DNA from: Victivallaceae bacterium | Lineage (GTDB): Bacteria; Verrucomicrobiota; Lentisphaeria; Victivallales; Victivallaceae | Direction: 5' to 3' | Assembly (NCBI GenBank): GCA_045596885.1 | Contig: JAZODE010000147.1 | Span: 465 to 64,464 of the forward strand | DNA: 64,000 nucleotides | Shown here: one piece after another, positions 6,082 to 40,493 of the stretch | How positions within the stretch are numbered: position 1 is the stretch's first letter | Layout: every line of letters begins with the position of its first letter | Notes under the pieces: model-generated | The model's input: the letters and a program-made list of their open reading frames with translations, nothing else | The model's database searches: none | Told to the model about the DNA's origin: nothing | Program-made: the position numbers and the translations under genes

Positions 6082-7293
6082 ATGGGATTTTCCTTGCGTA
6101 AGCTGGGGAGATATGATTATGCCACTTACTTGACATATATCTCTTACTCCAGCTGTTCTGTCATTGTTCCTGTTGTCCTCATTGAGATCGCACGGACCTT
6201 GAACTTTCCCCTTGAATCCGGCGGTCAGGGCGCAGGAGGCGCTCTGCAGATCGGCAGAAGTCTCTTTATGGTCTTTGCCATGATCTTTTGCGGATTCGCC
6301 GCCGGAAAATGGGGCAAAAGAGCTACCATCGGCACATCGGTGATCCTTATGGGACTTGGCATAGGCATTGCCGCCGTCGCCCCCTCTTACGGGATCATCT
6401 TTCTGGCTCTTGCCGTAGCTGGATTCGGTGAAGGGATCATTGAAGGACTCTGCACCCCTGTTCTGCAGGATCTTCACGAAGATGACGAGCCCAGCCGCTA
6501 TATCAATTTCGGGCACGGCTTCTGGTCCATCGGGATCGTCATGATGACCCTTCTGGTGGGGCTGCTCCTCAACTTGAAGGTTGACTGGCGTTATATTCTG
6601 GGTGGAGTAGCACTCTTTGCCATGTTTCCGGCACTCATGTTCCTGCTGCCGGAAAAGAAAAATCCCTTCAAAACCGAAAAGGTGGATGTGGCAACCGTCT
6701 GGCAGCACACCCTTAAAATCCTCAAATCAGGAAGATTCTGGCTCTTTTTCGCCCTTATGTTCCTGGGGGGCGGAGCAGAGTTCGGGTTGACCTTCTGGGC
6801 GTCAAGTTTCGTCCGGATGACCTTCAACTCCACCCCCATGCAGGGTGCCATGGCGACCTTGATCTTTTCCATCGGCATGATCATCGGTCGTCTGGGAGCG
6901 GCAGCGGTGGTCCCCCAGAAGTACCTTTTCCACATGCTGCTGGGAACTGCCGGGACTGGTATCATCGCCGGACTCATACTGCCCTTTGCTCCTTCCATCT
7001 GGGCTGCCTACGGACTCTTTCTGCTTCTGGGACTGGCTTGTTCCGCTCTCTGGCCCAGTTCACAGAGCTACTGTACCGACCGGATGCCTTTTCTGGATTC
7101 CACAGTGGTCTACATCATTCTTTCCTGCGCCGGAACTCCCGGATGCGGTATCATGACATGGCTGCTGGGAAAAATCGGAGACAATGTCTCTTTGAAGTGG
7201 AGCATGCTTCTGGTGCCTCTGTGTCTGCTTCTGTTTGTGGCAATACTGCTCTTTGAACGGATCAAATGGCGGACTCCAAAAGAAAACGCATGA
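6082..7293 (+). CDS. MFS transporter
   Basis: About 12 predicted TM helices and an MFS-like loop motif (GKWGKRATIG). Confidence 0.8.
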   Translation: MGFSLRKLGRYDYATYLTYISYSSCSVIVPVVLIEIARTLNFPLESGGQGAGGALQIGRSLFMVFAMIFCGFAAGKWGKRATIGTSVILMGLGIGIAAVAPSYGIIFLALAVAGFGEGIIEGLCTPVLQDLHEDDEPSRYINFGHGFWSIGIVMMTLLVGLLLNLKVDWRYILGGVALFAMFPALMFLLPEKKNPFKTEKVDVATVWQHTLKILKSGRFWLFFALMFLGGGAEFGLTFWASSFVRMTFNSTPMQGAMATLIFSIGMIIGRLGAAAVVPQKYLFHMLLGTAGTGIIAGLILPFAPSIWAAYGLFLLLGLACSALWPSSQSYCTDRMPFLDSTVVYIILSCAGTPGCGIMTWLLGKIGDNVSLKWSMLLVPLCLLLFVAILLFERIKWRTPKENA

Positions 7294-35688: not shown

Positions 35689-35899
35689 GTTCTTTTCACC
35701 CTTTTCATAAAATTGCAAAGCACGCCGCAGTTCCCCCTTCCCCCTACCCCGACAGCTTTTTAAGACTGCCGTGCTACACGGACAGGTGGCAAGTTCGTTT
35801 ACCGCGCCGTTCTCTACGCTTCATTACTTGATCCTCGGGTGATGCGGTGCGGTGGAATGGAATTCACCGCAAAACCTTCCGGAATCCTGATTGTCATAT

Positions 35900-35928
35900 A
35901 AAATACAACCAAACTTTGATTTTTTCAA
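35900..35928 (-). promoter_or_regulatory. Putative promoter of the rpmJ-rpsM-rpsK-rpoA-rplQ operon
   Basis: Minus strand TTGAAA, 17 nt, TATTTT. This implies a 5' leader of about 200 nt. Confidence 0.45.
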
Positions 35929-36010
35929 GCCTTTTTTGATTTTTTTTCAAAATTTTCCCTTTTTTCTTTCTCCGAAAGCCTTTTTTTTCTCCAATAACAC
36001 TTTTTGCAGC

Positions 36011-36039
36011 TTGACAAAAACAGGAGTCTGCTGTATATT
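36011..36039 (+). promoter_or_regulatory. Putative promoter of the first prepilin-like gene
   Basis: TTGACA (36011-36016), 17 nt, TATATT (36034-36039). Confidence 0.6.
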
Positions 36040-36095
36040 TCCTATGAGCCAATATTTAATATAATTCATTTAAAAAAGAAAAACAAGTCAACACT

Positions 36096-36941
36096 ATGAA
36101 ATCTCTTTCCTCTTTTCGTCGTTTCAATCAGTTTACTCTCATTGAGTTATTGGTGAAAAGATCACATCTCTGCTGTGATCGTGTTTATGGCAAAGAAGAA
36201 TGTCTTTCACCTGCCCATGGGCAGGTGAAGCTGTACAGCTTCACCTTAATAGAGCTTCTTGTAGTAATCGCCATCATTGCAATACTTGCTGCCATGCTGC
36301 TGCCCGCGCTGCAGCAGGCAAGGGACCGGGCAATGTCAACAACCTGTCTTAACAACCTGAAAGAGTTGAACTCCGCAGTATTCCACTACGCTGACGACAA
36401 CAAAGGTTTTGCTCCCACAGGAAAATATACCTCAAATTACATTTTCAGCGATATCCGTAACTTTGGCACTATCGCCTATTATGTGGGAGTCAGAGTCACT
36501 GACCACTCAGCCCTCATGCCAAAACTGGCGATTTGTCCTAAGGGGCGCAGAGACTTCAAAGCTCCTCCCAATGCTGAAAGAACCACCTCCAACACACCCA
36601 ATTTCAGCTATGCCATGAATTACTTCACCAGCACAGCAACAGGGCAATATTTCCAAAAGTTCGGAACCGGAGGCCACTTGAGTACCCGTTTGAGCTGGGG
36701 AGAGATCGGCGATTTCCGTTGTCTGGGGCTTGAGCCACCTTCATCGCTGACAGGAGGAGGCGGTATCAGCGGTCTGCACTGTATCTCATATCGCCACCCT
36801 CTGTACAAAACTACCAATGTGGCTTTTGCAGATGGTCACGCAGGAACCATCCAAACCGGATTTCTTCACCGCTACATCAGCGGATGGAACGGCAGTTACG
36901 ATTACACCTTCTTTTTCAGAGACAATTATTCTGCTAATTAA
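36096..36941 (+). CDS. Prepilin-type N-terminal cleavage/methylation domain protein, H-X9-DG (DUF1559-like) family, with duplicated FTLIELLV motif
   Basis: [28 protein letters not shown] signature and C-terminal RH...VAFADGH. A second, truncated FTLIELLV lies 36 codons upstream in frame. Confidence 0.85.
36160..36180 (+). repeat. Inverted repeat (7-bp stem) in the spacer of prepilin-like gene 1
   Basis: Stem gatcaca / tgtgatc with loop tctctgc. Confidence 0.7.
36207..36246 (+). repeat. Two overlapping perfect palindromes (22 nt and 24 nt) sharing the arm aggtga
   Basis: Palindrome 1 is tcacctgccca|tgggcaggtga (36207-36228). Palindrome 2 is aggtgaagctgt|acagcttcacct (36223-36246). Because they share an arm, their hairpins are mutually exclusive. 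Confidence 0.85.
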
Positions 36942-36952
36942 ACCTCTTCAAT

Positions 36953-37000
36953 TTCGCCGCTTTGTATGACCGATCAAATGCGGCGAAAATATTTTTTTTA
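36953..37000 (+). terminator. Rho-independent terminator after prepilin-like gene 1
   Basis: Stem ttcgccgc / gcggcgaa followed by a run of 8 Ts (aatatttttttt). Confidence 0.7.
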
Positions 37001-37041
37001 CTTGAAAAACTGGAAAGCTCACAAAAGATAAGGAGGTTCTT

Positions 37042-37980
37042 ATGTTTACGAAAAAAAGCCTTCCCACTGACAACATTTCCGGCAATTATTACAGACCATT
37101 GAAACAAACGACCTTTACCTTGATCGAATTATTGGTTACTACTGCACAACAGAACTGTCTTTTTAAAACAAAAAACAACACATCCTTACGCCCGGCAGGG
37201 CGCACTTCACGTTTGCCGCAGGCAAACTCTTCACACCTTCACATCTTCACTCGATCAGCGTTCACGCTGATCGAACTATTGGTTGTAATTGCCATCATCG
37301 CTATCCTTGCCGCCATGCTGCTGCCCGCTCTGCAGCAGGCACGGGAACGCGCCCGCACCTCCAAATGTTCTGCCAATCTGCTGCAGTTCGGGACTGCCGT
37401 CAATATGTATGCCGATGATTACAATGACTGCGTTCCGGGAGTCCGTACCAGCAACTCAAGCTACACAGGTCCCGAAGACTCCCCATGGGCAACCTCTATG
37501 GACCTTATTCCGGGCAAAGAATACGGAACTCTTGCACCTTATCTGGGGGCAGTGGGCGAGAAACAGCACATCGGCGCTATGACACCTCAACTGCGTTCCC
37601 GTTTTGCCTGTCCCTCTGAAAACAACAATGCCTGGTTCTGTTATTCTTATGTTTACAACGCCTGGTTCTGGATCCATGGCTCAACTCCAGCCCAGCTTGC
37701 CTCCCGCAAACGGTCACGCTTCACCAAACCGGCAAGAAAAATGCTCATCATGGACTGCTACCAAAATACCAATACGCCTTATATAAATTATTCTCACGGT
37801 GCAAAGATCCCCTACCGCCACAACAATACCAACGGCGTTCTTTTTGCTGACGGACATGTTAAATTTCTGCACAAAGGTCAAATCAGCCACAATACTGCGG
37901 GGTATCCCGGCTACCACCCCGATCCTACCGGATTGGTATTCTGGACGCCTGAAGGGAAAAAAGATTTCTATCTCTACTGA
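37042..37980 (+). CDS. Prepilin-type N-terminal cleavage/methylation domain protein, H-X9-DG (DUF1559-like) family, with duplicated FTLIELLV motif
   Basis: Strong AAGGAGG SD 5 nt upstream of the ATG at 37042. The first FTLIELLV is at codon 25. The full signature [28 protein letters not shown] starts at codon 74. C-terminal [13 protein letters not shown] is an exact H-X9-DG. Confidence 0.88.
37251..37274 (+). repeat. Perfect 10-bp inverted repeat across the second cleavage-site codons of gene 2
   Basis: Stem tcgatcagcg / cgctgatcga with loop ttca, covering codons (T)RSAFTLIE. Smaller hairpins lie at 37189-37202 and 37212-37226. Confidence 0.85.
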
Positions 37981-38030
37981 GACAAATTTTCCGAAAACAC
38001 ACGGTCCATAAATAATAAGGAAGACAACAA

Positions 38031-40493
38031 ATGAAAAAACTTCTATTCTTTTCTGCGCTGTTAGCAGCAACTCTGCTTTCAGCCATGCCGGTCGTCCGAA
38101 ACGGCAAATCCGACTATGTCATTGTCATTGCTCCCAATGCTCCTCAAGAGGCTGTCCGGGCAGCGGCAAATGATCTGCGGACCTACATTTTCAAGGCAAC
38201 AGGAGCAAAGCTCCCCATTGTGAAGCCTGCCCAAAAGGGCAAGCGGCCTGCCTTCATGCTGGGATTCATCAAAGTTGACAAGCCGGAAGGATTCGTGGTC
38301 AAAACACAGGGAAAAGATATCCACATTTCCGGAAATGACACAAACGGCAATGTCTACAATAACCACTGGGCAAGCGGTGCCCGGGTGGGCACCTGGTTCG
38401 GCGTGGCGGACTTTCTGGAAAAACAGCTGGGTATACGCTGGTTCATGCCGGGGGACTTGGGCGAATATGTCCCCAAACGCACCAACTGGGATGTCCCGGC
38501 TCTCGATTACGCCGATGCCCCCCGTTTTGAAAGCCGCCGTCTGGGCTACCAGACCCGCAAAGGCATGTCTCCCAAACAAGTGCGCGAAGCCCAGCTTTTC
38601 ATGCGCCGCAACCGTGTGGGACAGGCAAACTCCTGGTGCGCCTGGCACAGCTGGCTCCACTACCTCAAAAAAGAGGATTATTTTGACAAACATCCTGAAT
38701 ATTTCGCCTATGTGGGTGGACGCCGTCTTGCCACCGATTCTCTCGGGCACGGACTCCAGATCTGTACCACCAATCCCGAGGCGCTGGATCAGCTGGCTGA
38801 AAATATGATGAAGGACCTTGCCAAACGCAAACAGCGTTCCATGATGCCTCTTTCCCCCAATGACGGCGGTAAACTTTGTGAATGCGCCAACTGTCTGGCA
38901 CTTGATGACGGAGTCCGTCCCGACGGCAGCCGTATCATGACCACCCGCATGATGACCTACGCCAATGAAATGGCAAAACGGATCGTCAAAAAGTTTCCCG
39001 ACCAGACCTTCGGCATGTATGCCTACTCCTTCTACAAAGAGGGTGTCAGCAAAGTCAAGGTCCATCCCAATATCACCATTATGGAGGTCCTCAACGACAG
39101 CGGTCTGAGTTACTATAACCCCGGCACCCGGAAAGCACATCTGAAAAACCTCAAAGCATGGCGCAGCGTTCTGAATAAACTTTATTACTACGCGACTCCC
39201 GAAGGCATGGGCAATCTGGAACTCCCCTGCGGACAGTTCAAAAACATCAGCATGCTTTTTGACAACCTTTACGCCGCCGATGTGACCGGTATCGATATGA
39301 ACAACACCACCAGCTACACCGCTTCCGCCCTGAACAACTACTTTTTTCTCAAATATTCCTGGGGCAATATCAAGGATAGAGAAAAGTTCTACGCTGAGAC
39401 GCTCCGTGACTGCTACGGTAAGATTGCCGCCCCCGTTATGAGAGGTTACTTTGATGCTATTGAAAAGCGTTTCACTGAATACGCCTCAGGCGGATTGACA
39501 GAAAATATCAGTTTGGGATACATCCCCCGCTATCCCGGAGTCCTGACCAAAGTTTACCCCGGACTGGCTGAAGAGTGGCTCCCCAAATTGAAGGCTGTTC
39601 TTGCAAAAACCACCGACAAAGGACAGAAAGCGCGGCTGCAGCTTGCCATTACCAATCTGGAGTACTGCCAGGTAACTGTTCAGCTTTACGCCATTGCCGC
39701 CAAACTTGTCACCAGCCCGCGTCCTGATGCAAAACTTGCGGCGAAAGCTCTGAAACTGACTCAGCTCCGTAAAGCTCTTCTCAGCAAGACCCGCTCTTTC
39801 CCCGGCAACTCCCCTGCCAACACAGCCAGAACTGAACGCACCTTCCGCATTCCCTTTGATGCCAATGTGTTCTCCTTTATGATGGCTGCCAACGCCCGCA
39901 AGAGTGCAGCGACCACCCGTATTGCGGAGCTCCCCAAGTTGGATGGTAAACTGGATGAAGCTCTCTGGAAAAAGATCAAACCTCTGCGTATCGAACTTGA
40001 CAAAGACACTGCCGATCCCCACAAAGTCGGAGCCAATGTTTACCTTGCCCGTCACAACGGCGACCTTTATCTGGGTATCCATTGTGAAGAACCTCTGATG
40101 AACAAAAATCAGGATTCCGGTCTCCGTAAGGACAGCCCTGTTTGGGATGAAAACAGTATCGATCTTTTCTTTTCCACTCCTGACAAAAAATGTTTCCAGC
40201 TGGTCTTCAACTCTCTGGGAACTGCCAGAAGTTTCAGCAAAGAAGGCAAAAAGAATCTCCCCTGGGATGCCAAAGCGGTTGTTAAAACCTTCCGCGGGAA
40301 AAATTTCTGGAGCGCTGAGATCAAGCTGCCTCTGAATTCCATGTACAAAGGTAAAGAATTCATCGGCGACATCTGGGGGATGAACTTCTGCCGCCACAGA
40401 TGTACCGTTCACCCTGACGAATACACCTGCTGGAGTCCTACTTTCGGCGATTTCCACCGTCCTGAGCGTTTCGGCAGGATCATCATAAAGTAA
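38031..40493 (+). CDS. Secreted DUF4838-family protein with C-terminal carbohydrate-binding (CBM9-like) region
   Basis: Signal peptide MKKLLFFSALLAATLLSA, a DUF4838-like N-terminus (RNGKSDYVIVIAPNAP) and a CECANCLALDD cysteine motif. Confidence 0.8.
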   Translation: MKKLLFFSALLAATLLSAMPVVRNGKSDYVIVIAPNAPQEAVRAAANDLRTYIFKATGAKLPIVKPAQKGKRPAFMLGFIKVDKPEGFVVKTQGKDIHISGNDTNGNVYNNHWASGARVGTWFGVADFLEKQLGIRWFMPGDLGEYVPKRTNWDVPALDYADAPRFESRRLGYQTRKGMSPKQVREAQLFMRRNRVGQANSWCAWHSWLHYLKKEDYFDKHPEYFAYVGGRRLATDSLGHGLQICTTNPEALDQLAENMMKDLAKRKQRSMMPLSPNDGGKLCECANCLALDDGVRPDGSRIMTTRMMTYANEMAKRIVKKFPDQTFGMYAYSFYKEGVSKVKVHPNITIMEVLNDSGLSYYNPGTRKAHLKNLKAWRSVLNKLYYYATPEGMGNLELPCGQFKNISMLFDNLYAADVTGIDMNNTTSYTASALNNYFFLKYSWGNIKDREKFYAETLRDCYGKIAAPVMRGYFDAIEKRFTEYASGGLTENISLGYIPRYPGVLTKVYPGLAEEWLPKLKAVLAKTTDKGQKARLQLAITNLEYCQVTVQLYAIAAKLVTSPRPDAKLAAKALKLTQLRKALLSKTRSFPGNSPANTARTERTFRIPFDANVFSFMMAANARKSAATTRIAELPKLDGKLDEALWKKIKPLRIELDKDTADPHKVGANVYLARHNGDLYLGIHCEEPLMNKNQDSGLRKDSPVWDENSIDLFFSTPDKKCFQLVFNSLGTARSFSKEGKKNLPWDAKAVVKTFRGKNFWSAEIKLPLNSMYKGKEFIGDIWGMNFCRHRCTVHPDEYTCWSPTFGDFHRPERFGRIIIK

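Follow-up and report, generated by a model that had tools for sequence, protein, structure and literature searches.

The 41-codon spacer that separates the two FTLIELLV motifs of gene 2, a prepilin-like gene of a Victivallaceae bacterium, is an optional, dispersed repeat rather than a design feature of that gene. It is conserved as a nucleotide sequence with its hairpin structure and not as a peptide, and the doubled motif is the footprint of an inserted repeat, not a purpose-built leader with two sites. We propose that the spacer and the second motif together constitute a small (~110-200 nt), non-autonomous, hairpin-rich in-frame repeat that is specific for the FTLIELLV site in gut Lentisphaeria (Victivallales), a reading that we consider reasonably probable, if well short of assured. 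Judging from the sequences compared, a gene carrying the insert probably still works, thanks to the spare copy of the motif. All data on the element come from metagenome assemblies.

The doubled motif of gene 2

The features of gene 2 and of the adjoining gene 1 are collected in Table 1, with positions counted in the window, i.e. the whole 64-kb stretch of DNA that was analysed. The open reading frame of gene 2, its Shine-Dalgarno sequence, the motif coordinates, the length of the spacer, the three hairpins within it and the implied leader of 73 aa, all reported in a preliminary description of this DNA, were reproduced to the base. The two FTLIELLV copies, at a spacing of 147 nt, differ at 4 of 24 nt (83% identity), each difference being synonymous. 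Matches to the degenerate DNA motif TTYACNYTNATHGARYTNYTNGT number four in the window and are confined to genes 1 and 2, and none was obtained in any of 100 shuffles. The same two-motif layout is found in seven independent metagenome assemblies of the strain group, which rules out an assembly artefact. We also considered a derivation of the spacer from the adjacent native coding sequence, in direct or inverted orientation, and rejected it, as only the terminal palindrome shows similarity.

Table 1. Features of genes 1 and 2 and of the elements that they carry
Feature	Position	Strand	Basis or remark
Gene 1, prepilin-like paralog adjoining gene 2, carrying a type E element	36096..36941	+	
Type E unit, 108 nt, spacer plus its own FTLIELL copy	36156..36263	+	Missing to the base in L003 and L005
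Type E hairpins	36160-36180, 36206-36229, 36224-36245	+	
Shine-Dalgarno sequence AAGGAGG	37030..37036	+	5 nt upstream of ATG 37042; read from the sequence
Gene 2, prepilin-like DUF1559 / H-X9-DG protein, 312 aa	37042..37980	+	ORF list, Pfam, TIGR02532
Native leader, 24 codons	37042..37113	+	Homologous leader before the single motif of the empty ortholog P0123/L121
FTLIELLV copy 1, the gene's own, now within the leader	37114..37137	+	Third-position variation; no hydrophobic stretch after it
147-nt inserted unit, spacer plus element-borne motif copy	37138..37284	+	Exact stretch missing from ortholog L121
5' module, A-rich, weakly structured	37138..37179	+	Module subfamilies exchanged between element types
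Hairpin H1, CGCCC-GNNA-GGGCG	37189..37202	+	Stem invariant; loop G...A kept, two middle bases vary
Hairpin H2, variable stem, conserved structure	37211..37227	+	6/7 pairs compensatory; 98% of cells paired
Three tandem 8-nt CTTCAC(A) repeats	37228..37250	+	Direct-repeat family D1; invariant across loci
Terminal palindrome H3	37251..37274	+	Inverted repeat I1; 11-nt arms, 100% complementary
FTLIELLV copy 2, functional N-terminus/anchor motif; first 17 nt element-derived	37261..37284	+	Invariance; Pfam N_methyl
Hydrophobic signal-anchor segment, 24 aa	37261..37332	+	Sole stretch above threshold in hydropathy scan

At the protein level, both PF07963 (N_methyl; 32 bits against a cut-off of 21.2, aa 71-94) and TIGR02532 (30.2 bits against 16.3, aa 72-94) match the second motif copy only. 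The product of gene 2 further matches PF07596 (DUF1559) with 41 bits (cut-off 23.3) and TIGR04294 with 17.2 bits, slightly below the cut-off of 19, and the H-X9-DG motif is readable in its translation. Of the hallmarks of class III signals, Glu at +5 and a run of about 20 hydrophobic residues are present at copy 2 alone according to the hydropathy scan. Gly at -1 is absent from gene 2, where copy 2 has A and copy 1 has T in this position; the native leaders of its relatives mostly have no G at -1 either. In place of the short basic leader of prepilins, gene 2 has one of 73 aa, or of 24 aa without the element. The spacer itself is hydrophilic, with a net charge of +6.

Empty and filled sites

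Orthologs were sought with the mature domain of gene 2 alone. The protein P0123, encoded on contig L121, is 99% identical to gene 2 in its mature part and has a single FTLIELLV, preceded by the leader MFTEKIFYPDNISGNSYSPVKRTT, which is clearly homologous to the 24-aa native leader of gene 2. The DNA of this contig lacks exactly 147 nt, comprising the spacer and one motif copy. A second pair of empty and filled sites (P0122 on L122 and P0124 on L123, respectively) was observed among orthologs that are 65% identical to gene 2, and many prepilin-like paralogs are without the element. Comparable polymorphism affects gene 1, from which the exact 108 nt of the type E unit are missing in two of six sister-strain assemblies. 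The alleles of gene 1 are otherwise mosaic, and SNPs that cluster at 36146-36309 are linked to this 108-nt indel.

Dispersal of the element across genes and genomes

An exact 23-nt pattern taken from the spacer matched at least 111 stretches in a species-representative genome collection. Among the matches listed, about 70 loci belong to some 30 Lentisphaeria/Victivallales MAGs from ruminant and other guts, which bears out the earlier suggestion of a possible dispersed repeat associated with this gene family; a single MAG holds at least 14 pattern loci. Every Lentisphaeria/Victivallales locus among these listed matches has a co-oriented FTLIELLV after the pattern, and all Lentisphaeria matches among them lie in a prepilin-like gene, at its FTLIELLV site. 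Simple tandem repeats with no relation to the element account for the matches in Bacteroidota and other phyla. A scan of JGI metagenomes with a type E pattern returned just one further copy of that type. Viral contigs gave no match to the element, and a phage or plasmid vector, considered as a candidate, was rejected on this count.

An exhaustive search of 1.84 billion proteins recovered the 41-aa spacer in 99 representatives (clustered at 50% identity), with full-length proteins typically of 230-340 aa and with the match N-terminal in nearly all cases, typically within residues ~12-110. The best protein matches to the N-terminal 109 residues of gene 2 have the same order of a short native leader, FTLIELLV, spacer and second motif. 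P0147 and P0148 share 40 and 39, respectively, of the 41 spacer residues with gene 2, and their mature domains are just 22-24% identical to its own. At the DNA level the copies in these three different genes are ~99% identical throughout the element, with sharp boundaries that begin just before the Val codon GTT and end just after the GAACT of copy 2; the sequences flanking these boundaries differ among the three genes. Several unrelated types of spacer exist, units are stacked two to four deep in some proteins, and chimeric modules are seen. Some contigs end inside the element, and at one decayed copy (L078) the downstream gene has been lost.

Anatomy and conservation of the inserted unit

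Each unit consists of two modules, namely a less conserved, A-rich 5' module that falls into subfamilies, one of them common to a different element type, and a highly conserved 3' module. In the latter, a (C)TTCAC or GCTTCAT word comes after each short hairpin, and the terminal palindrome closes the module; hairpins are distinct here and only faint in the 5' module. Further TTCAC copies occur at 37206-37210 and 37261-37265, and the right arm of H3 coincides with the T-L-I-E codons of motif copy 2. The 147-nt unit can be placed equally well a few bases to the left, and its conserved core spans ~37135-37277. The stem of H2, at 37212-37226, extends to 37211-37227, and its long and short variants differ in length only by multiples of 3 nt. 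Folded as RNA, positions 37114-37290 gave z = -4.0, with none of 200 shuffles folding as well, and a value of z = -3.8, likewise unmatched by any shuffle, was obtained for the gene 1 region. A search of Rfam with positions 35800-38200 returned two sub-threshold chance matches and none to a known RNA family. Intrinsic terminators were flagged by a scan at 37251-37274 and 36160-36180 and were rejected, since neither has a true T-run and both sites lie inside a read-through ORF.

We then compared entropy by codon position within three length classes. In the 147-nt class, the values for positions 1, 2 and 3 are 0.24, 0.10 and 0.70 in copy 1 and 0.55, 0.41 and 1.07 in the downstream coding sequence, against 0.28, 0.31 and 0.28 in the spacer. 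Thus, the usual variability at third positions is present in copy 1 and downstream and is absent from the spacer, and for want of such a third-position signal the spacer is not evolving as a peptide. Copy 2 hardly varies over its first 17 nt, third codon positions included, which places these nucleotides within the element. In the loop of H1 the third position of the codon is even kept while the first two vary. Purifying selection for a host function could also produce near-identity across species beside flanks with saturated synonymous sites, a point that counts against reading the element as a mobile repeat.

The hairpins, whose conservation and covariation had been left by the preliminary description as a point to be checked, are indeed maintained by paired changes. 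Across 30 distinct copies and four helices, 98.9% of cells are paired, and this figure drops to 30-38% when the partners are slid by 1-3 columns. Nine helix pairs show changes on both sides, among them six of the seven pairs of H2, and one H3 pair switches between A-U (25 copies) and G-C (4 copies) with a single exception. The type E hairpins likewise covary, as seen in L090 and L124. Cells other than Watson-Crick are few (about four G-U against two or three A-C, L114 included), too sparse to tell RNA from DNA. With regard to the loops, C-GNA-G triloops hint at DNA hairpins and GNNA/GNRA loops at RNA.

Conservation of this kind might be expected of a host cis-regulatory module, i.e. a structured RNA or DNA in the 5' coding region that spreads because it is useful, with one trans-acting factor co-regulating many prepilin-like genes linked to polysaccharide-utilisation loci via the hairpins or the (C)UUCAC sites. 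It would account for strong cross-species conservation of nucleotides next to synonymous-saturated flanks, compensatory changes in the hairpins, loops of the GNNA/GNRA type, z-scores near -4 on folding, a constant placement and orientation close to the mRNA start and iterated TTCAC motifs, which resemble binding sites. Nevertheless, we consider such a module, the main alternative to a mobile repeat, unlikely: the presence of the element varies between near-identical strains and orthologs in which nothing else has changed, many paralogs dispense with it, and unrelated element types interchange and stack two to four deep. Furthermore, Rfam offers no match, and the sparse asymmetry in wobble pairs does not suffice to identify RNA as the molecule under selection.

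Ends of the element and possible modes of gain and loss

The ends of the element, GTTACTACTGCA... and ...GATCGAACT, are not inverted with respect to each other, and it has no terminal inverted repeats, the sole long inverted repeat being the internal 3' palindrome. On the left it is flanked by (Y)TN-YTG, as set by Leu codons, and no fixed word of 4-5 nt is present on the 5' side. An 8-bp target-site duplication was considered, in view of the TATTGGTT that flanks the copy in the window, and was rejected, as it finds no support over 43 copies, in which the flanks match at a mean of 5.84 of 8 positions against 5.68 in permutations (p = 0.12). In two sister copies the flanks match at 6/8 and 5/8 positions. 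A tblastn search of 0.94 Mb of locus DNA for an IS200-like TnpA gave no match, a weak test, with an approximate query sequence. That no autonomous partner was found in the locus DNA searched is a further observation that counts against the mobile-repeat reading, as do the missing terminal inverted repeats and the lack of a significant target-site duplication.

As for the process of gain, the element may have arrived via a targeted single-strand transposition of the HUH/IS200-IS605/PATE-like kind, without target duplication, a mode that fits its sharp, gene-independent boundaries, its fixed orientation and the lack of both inverted repeats and target duplication. Alternatively, it might be gained via short-tract gene conversion between paralogs, a mode in keeping with motif copies on both sides of the unit, with mosaic alleles and with the exchange of modules. 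The unit could be lost precisely if the motif copies on either side of it recombined or if slippage occurred between them.

Gene conversion could also be taken further, with no dedicated mobility at all, so that the units would owe their spread to unequal recombination or gene conversion among paralogs and the hairpins would be by-products of template switching at the TTCAC site. Every unit does sit between two copies of a shared motif, gene 1 has mosaic alleles with the SNP cluster linked to its indel, modules are swapped between element types, and target-site duplication was not detected. We regard this as quite unlikely all the same, given that the boundaries before GTT and after GAACT are sharp and identical in different genes, that the homologous flanks are only 24 nt long, with degeneracy at synonymous positions, and that mere by-products are not expected to keep compensatory hairpins or near-identity across species.

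Maintenance of the reading frame

Among the 46 loci at which an upstream motif copy could be found in the DNA in any frame, the distance from motif to motif is a multiple of 3 in all 46 cases, and none has an in-frame stop. These distances fall into ten length classes, of which eight represent single units (114 to 195 nt) and two stacked units (264 and 273 nt). At L109, a 1-nt deletion and a 1-nt insertion ~50 nt apart have rewritten about 20 residues and restored the frame. Only the sense frame 0 is open through the unit, and stops are present in all three antisense frames. No ATG, GTG or TTG near copy 2 is conserved across variants. An internal start at the in-frame TTG (the Leu of SRLPQ) in H2 was rejected as it is not conserved in other variants, and the maintenance of the frame counts against an internal translation start in general. 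Translational bypassing of the insert was likewise ruled out by the maintained reading frame. Translation from the native ATG through the element, as the preliminary description had supposed, is therefore the reading best supported by these comparisons. At some loci copy 1 has decayed, for instance to FSLLKQP, FLLIERL or FTQIGLP, which indicates that the last copy of the motif alone is functional.

The maintained frame is also what one would predict of a design at the protein level, whereby the spacer would serve as an extended leader peptide with two processing sites or as a cytoplasmic domain, and in agreement with this it is hydrophilic and positively charged (+6), as suits the cytoplasm, and the element provides a small residue (A or S) at -1. 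Yet the third codon positions lack the signature of selection on amino acids, the compensated frameshift of L109 rewrites ~20 residues, copy 1 has decayed at some loci, orthologs dispense with the spacer, and types of spacer with unrelated peptides are interchangeable. Hence, we deem this alternative very unlikely. The same evidence bears on the preliminary description, which had seen in the two adjacent genes a family-level design rather than an accident in one gene: the architecture does recur across prepilin-like genes, whereas the notion of design fails, in that close orthologs lack the spacer with the rest unchanged (147 nt in L121, 108 nt in L003 and L005), the very outcome that this description had named as refuting its finding, third positions carry no signal, the spacer occurs in otherwise unrelated paralogs and copy 1 decays. 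Finally, chance, an assembly artefact or a one-off local tandem duplication, for which nothing speaks beyond the two motif copies being direct repeats, can practically be dismissed in the face of four motif matches against none in 100 shuffles, the agreement of seven independent assemblies and a spacer that is not copied from neighbouring sequence and is common to ~100 other protein clusters.

Presumed tolerance of the insert

Returning to the in-frame repeat that we favor, we posit that translation would start at the original ATG and run on through the element, and that the insert would be harmless in lengthening only a cytoplasmic, positively charged leader, with the regenerated motif standing directly before the membrane anchor. 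The element would thus be tolerated because it is confined to a cytoplasmic, probably cleaved leader and regenerates a functional N-terminus. The prepilin peptidase might cut off the long leader at the last motif, or the leader might persist without harm; its removal together with the element by this peptidase would be plausible, although the missing Gly at -1 counts against cleavage. More tentatively, we raise the possibility of a selfish repeat that has specialized on a protein-processing site, inserting solely into the codons of the cleavage/anchor motif and supplying a new copy of it, and whose translated product is discarded with the leader by the host prepilin peptidase, an idea that we find rather less than likely. 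Such a repeat might depend on a hitherto undescribed targeting enzyme with an affinity for hairpin-plus-TTCAC units.

Significance

The element explains the odd, long and repetitive N-termini of many Lentisphaeria proteins annotated as 'prepilin-type' in databases as well as the frequent breaks of contigs at such genes, and its recognition should be useful for annotation, the calling of start codons and binning. Its polymorphic presence or absence provides ready strain markers. It combines extreme site specificity with a plausible reason for tolerance, namely a discarded leader and a self-supplied motif. The covariation and the iterated TTCAC words point to a specific protein partner, which might be a transposase/recombinase or a regulator. 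If the element affects the expression of pilin-like genes beside glycoside-hydrolase genes, it would bear on the regulation of polysaccharide use in gut bacteria.

Comparison with known systems

Full-text searches of the literature found no description of the doubled-motif architecture. With class III signal peptides gene 2 shares the N-methylation motif, which has F at +1 and E at +5, and the ~20 hydrophobic residues behind it, and it differs from them in the length of its leader (73 aa versus the usual ~6-25) and in having A, or T at copy 1, rather than G at -1. The bypassing elements of phage T4 gene 60 and the mitochondrial 'byps' are similarly short, structured inserts in coding regions between matching codons. 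However, bypassed inserts need no frame, whereas here the frame is kept in 46/46 cases and repaired after a frameshift, which makes read-through translation simpler than bypassing. Introns are removed from RNA and inteins by protein self-splicing; an element discarded with the leader would, if true, represent a further way for parasitic DNA to stay hidden within genes.

Palindrome-associated elements derived from IS200/IS605 (PATEs) and REP-RAYT systems are without terminal inverted repeats or target-site duplication, are strict in orientation and target, and have subterminal hairpins and short conserved flanking motifs. The Lentisphaeria element resembles them in the lack of terminal inverted repeats and target duplication, the fixed orientation and the subterminal hairpins. 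It differs from them in that no Y1/HUH transposase was found near its copies (approximate query, 0.94 Mb), that no fixed target of 4-5 nt can be defined on its 5' side, and that it is always intragenic and in frame, whereas PATEs and REPs are normally intergenic.

Among bacterial MITEs (Correia/CREE, ERIC, RUP, BOX), some create in-frame fusions (PMC10969869). The element is comparable to these in size, copy number, the absence of transposase coding, polymorphic presence or absence between strains and the breaking of assemblies at the repeat. Unlike MITEs, it has no terminal inverted repeats and no detected target-site duplication (p = 0.12), and it inserts at a specific protein-coding motif where MITEs use a short dinucleotide.

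The element as we read it is analogous to the Rickettsia palindromic elements (RPEs), selfish palindromic repeats that lie in frame within genes for proteins (Ogata et al. 2000, 2002, as summarised in PMC10969869). Like the Lentisphaeria element, RPEs are hairpin-forming, multi-copy repeats of ~150 bp belonging to several families, which are inserted in frame, translated within the host protein (as we infer in the present case) and apparently tolerated. There is no sequence relationship between the two, and they occur in different phyla. RPEs are found in many unrelated genes at fold-compatible sites, in contrast to the Lentisphaeria element, which occupies one site in one gene family, carries a replacement motif and sits in a leader that is probably removed. 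Relative to known in-frame selfish or palindromic repeats, the element is thus novel in its unusual site specificity and in supplying its own replacement for the motif into which it inserts.

Organization and strain variation of the locus

The transcription signals recovered around the two adjacent prepilin-like paralogs, gene 1 and gene 2, include a terminator-like hairpin which the automatic terminator scan overlooked because of its long loop (see table). This hairpin suggests that the two genes form separate transcription units. Comparison of the window with the sister-strain assemblies (L001-L006) revealed gene 1 to be a recombination mosaic, with 3-14 SNPs per 100 nt across window positions 36260-36800, and the ribosomal-protein/rpoA region just 5' of it displays 0-1 SNPs per 100 nt. 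In one of these strains, L002, homology to the window stops immediately 3' of gene 2 (L002:11127-11339 versus window 37990 onward), and the next gene is a third prepilin-like gene with a type B element, within which the contig terminates; this arrangement represents a structural variant of the locus.

Features associated with the prepilin-like genes and with matches to the 23-nt pattern
Feature	Location	Strand	Details
Near-consensus promoter	window 36011-36039		TTGACA-17-TATATT; upstream of gene 1
Terminator-like hairpin	window 36955-36999		Gene 1-gene 2 intergenic region; CGCCGC, 19-nt loop, GCGGCG, then AAAATATTTTTTTT
Cobalamin riboswitch (RF00174)	L114:323-509	-	47 bits
Bacteroidota tandem arrays	L030, L033, L056, L057, L060, L065, L069 and others		23-nt pattern search

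Contexts and variants of the element

At the L114 locus, the cobalamin riboswitch lies immediately 5' of an ORF that spans a type A element and continues into a prepilin-like gene, and this direct juxtaposition suggests that expression of this one gene is under B12 control. The 23-nt pattern from inside the gene 2 spacer also matched intergenic tandem arrays, with a period of 8 or 24 nt, in many Bacteroidota genomes; these lack a prepilin-gene context and appear to bear no relationship to the Lentisphaeria element beyond the common CTTCACA word.

Some element arrays are decayed or rearranged. At L078 (reversed coordinates about 6400-7200, - strand) unrelated sequence, not the motif, comes after an element stack, so that the gene downstream has been lost; in P0216 (530 aa) another stack is fused to a large unrelated protein. 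In several gene 2 orthologs (P0127, P0128, P0137, P0138; L124) a type E-like unit is represented by its 3' half alone (...RQVKLYS/KPYS preceding FTLIELLVV), and no copy of the motif can be recognised upstream; this indicates that the insertions are old and that their first motif copy has eroded. In the L047 element the second hairpin, H2, measures 42 nt and contains a nested additional hairpin closed by a GAAA tetraloop, and its extra length relative to the short H2 form remains a multiple of 3.

Residue -1 of the leaders

The canonical Gly at -1 is almost never present in native leaders of the Lentisphaeria prepilin-like family (P0122-P0138 and unoccupied genes in L007, L009, L011, L086 and L103), in which K, S, T, H, N, F, L, P and R are found; the elements bring Ala or Ser to this position. 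Given the rarity of Gly, either the peptidase would have to be permissive or many family members would be uncleaved.
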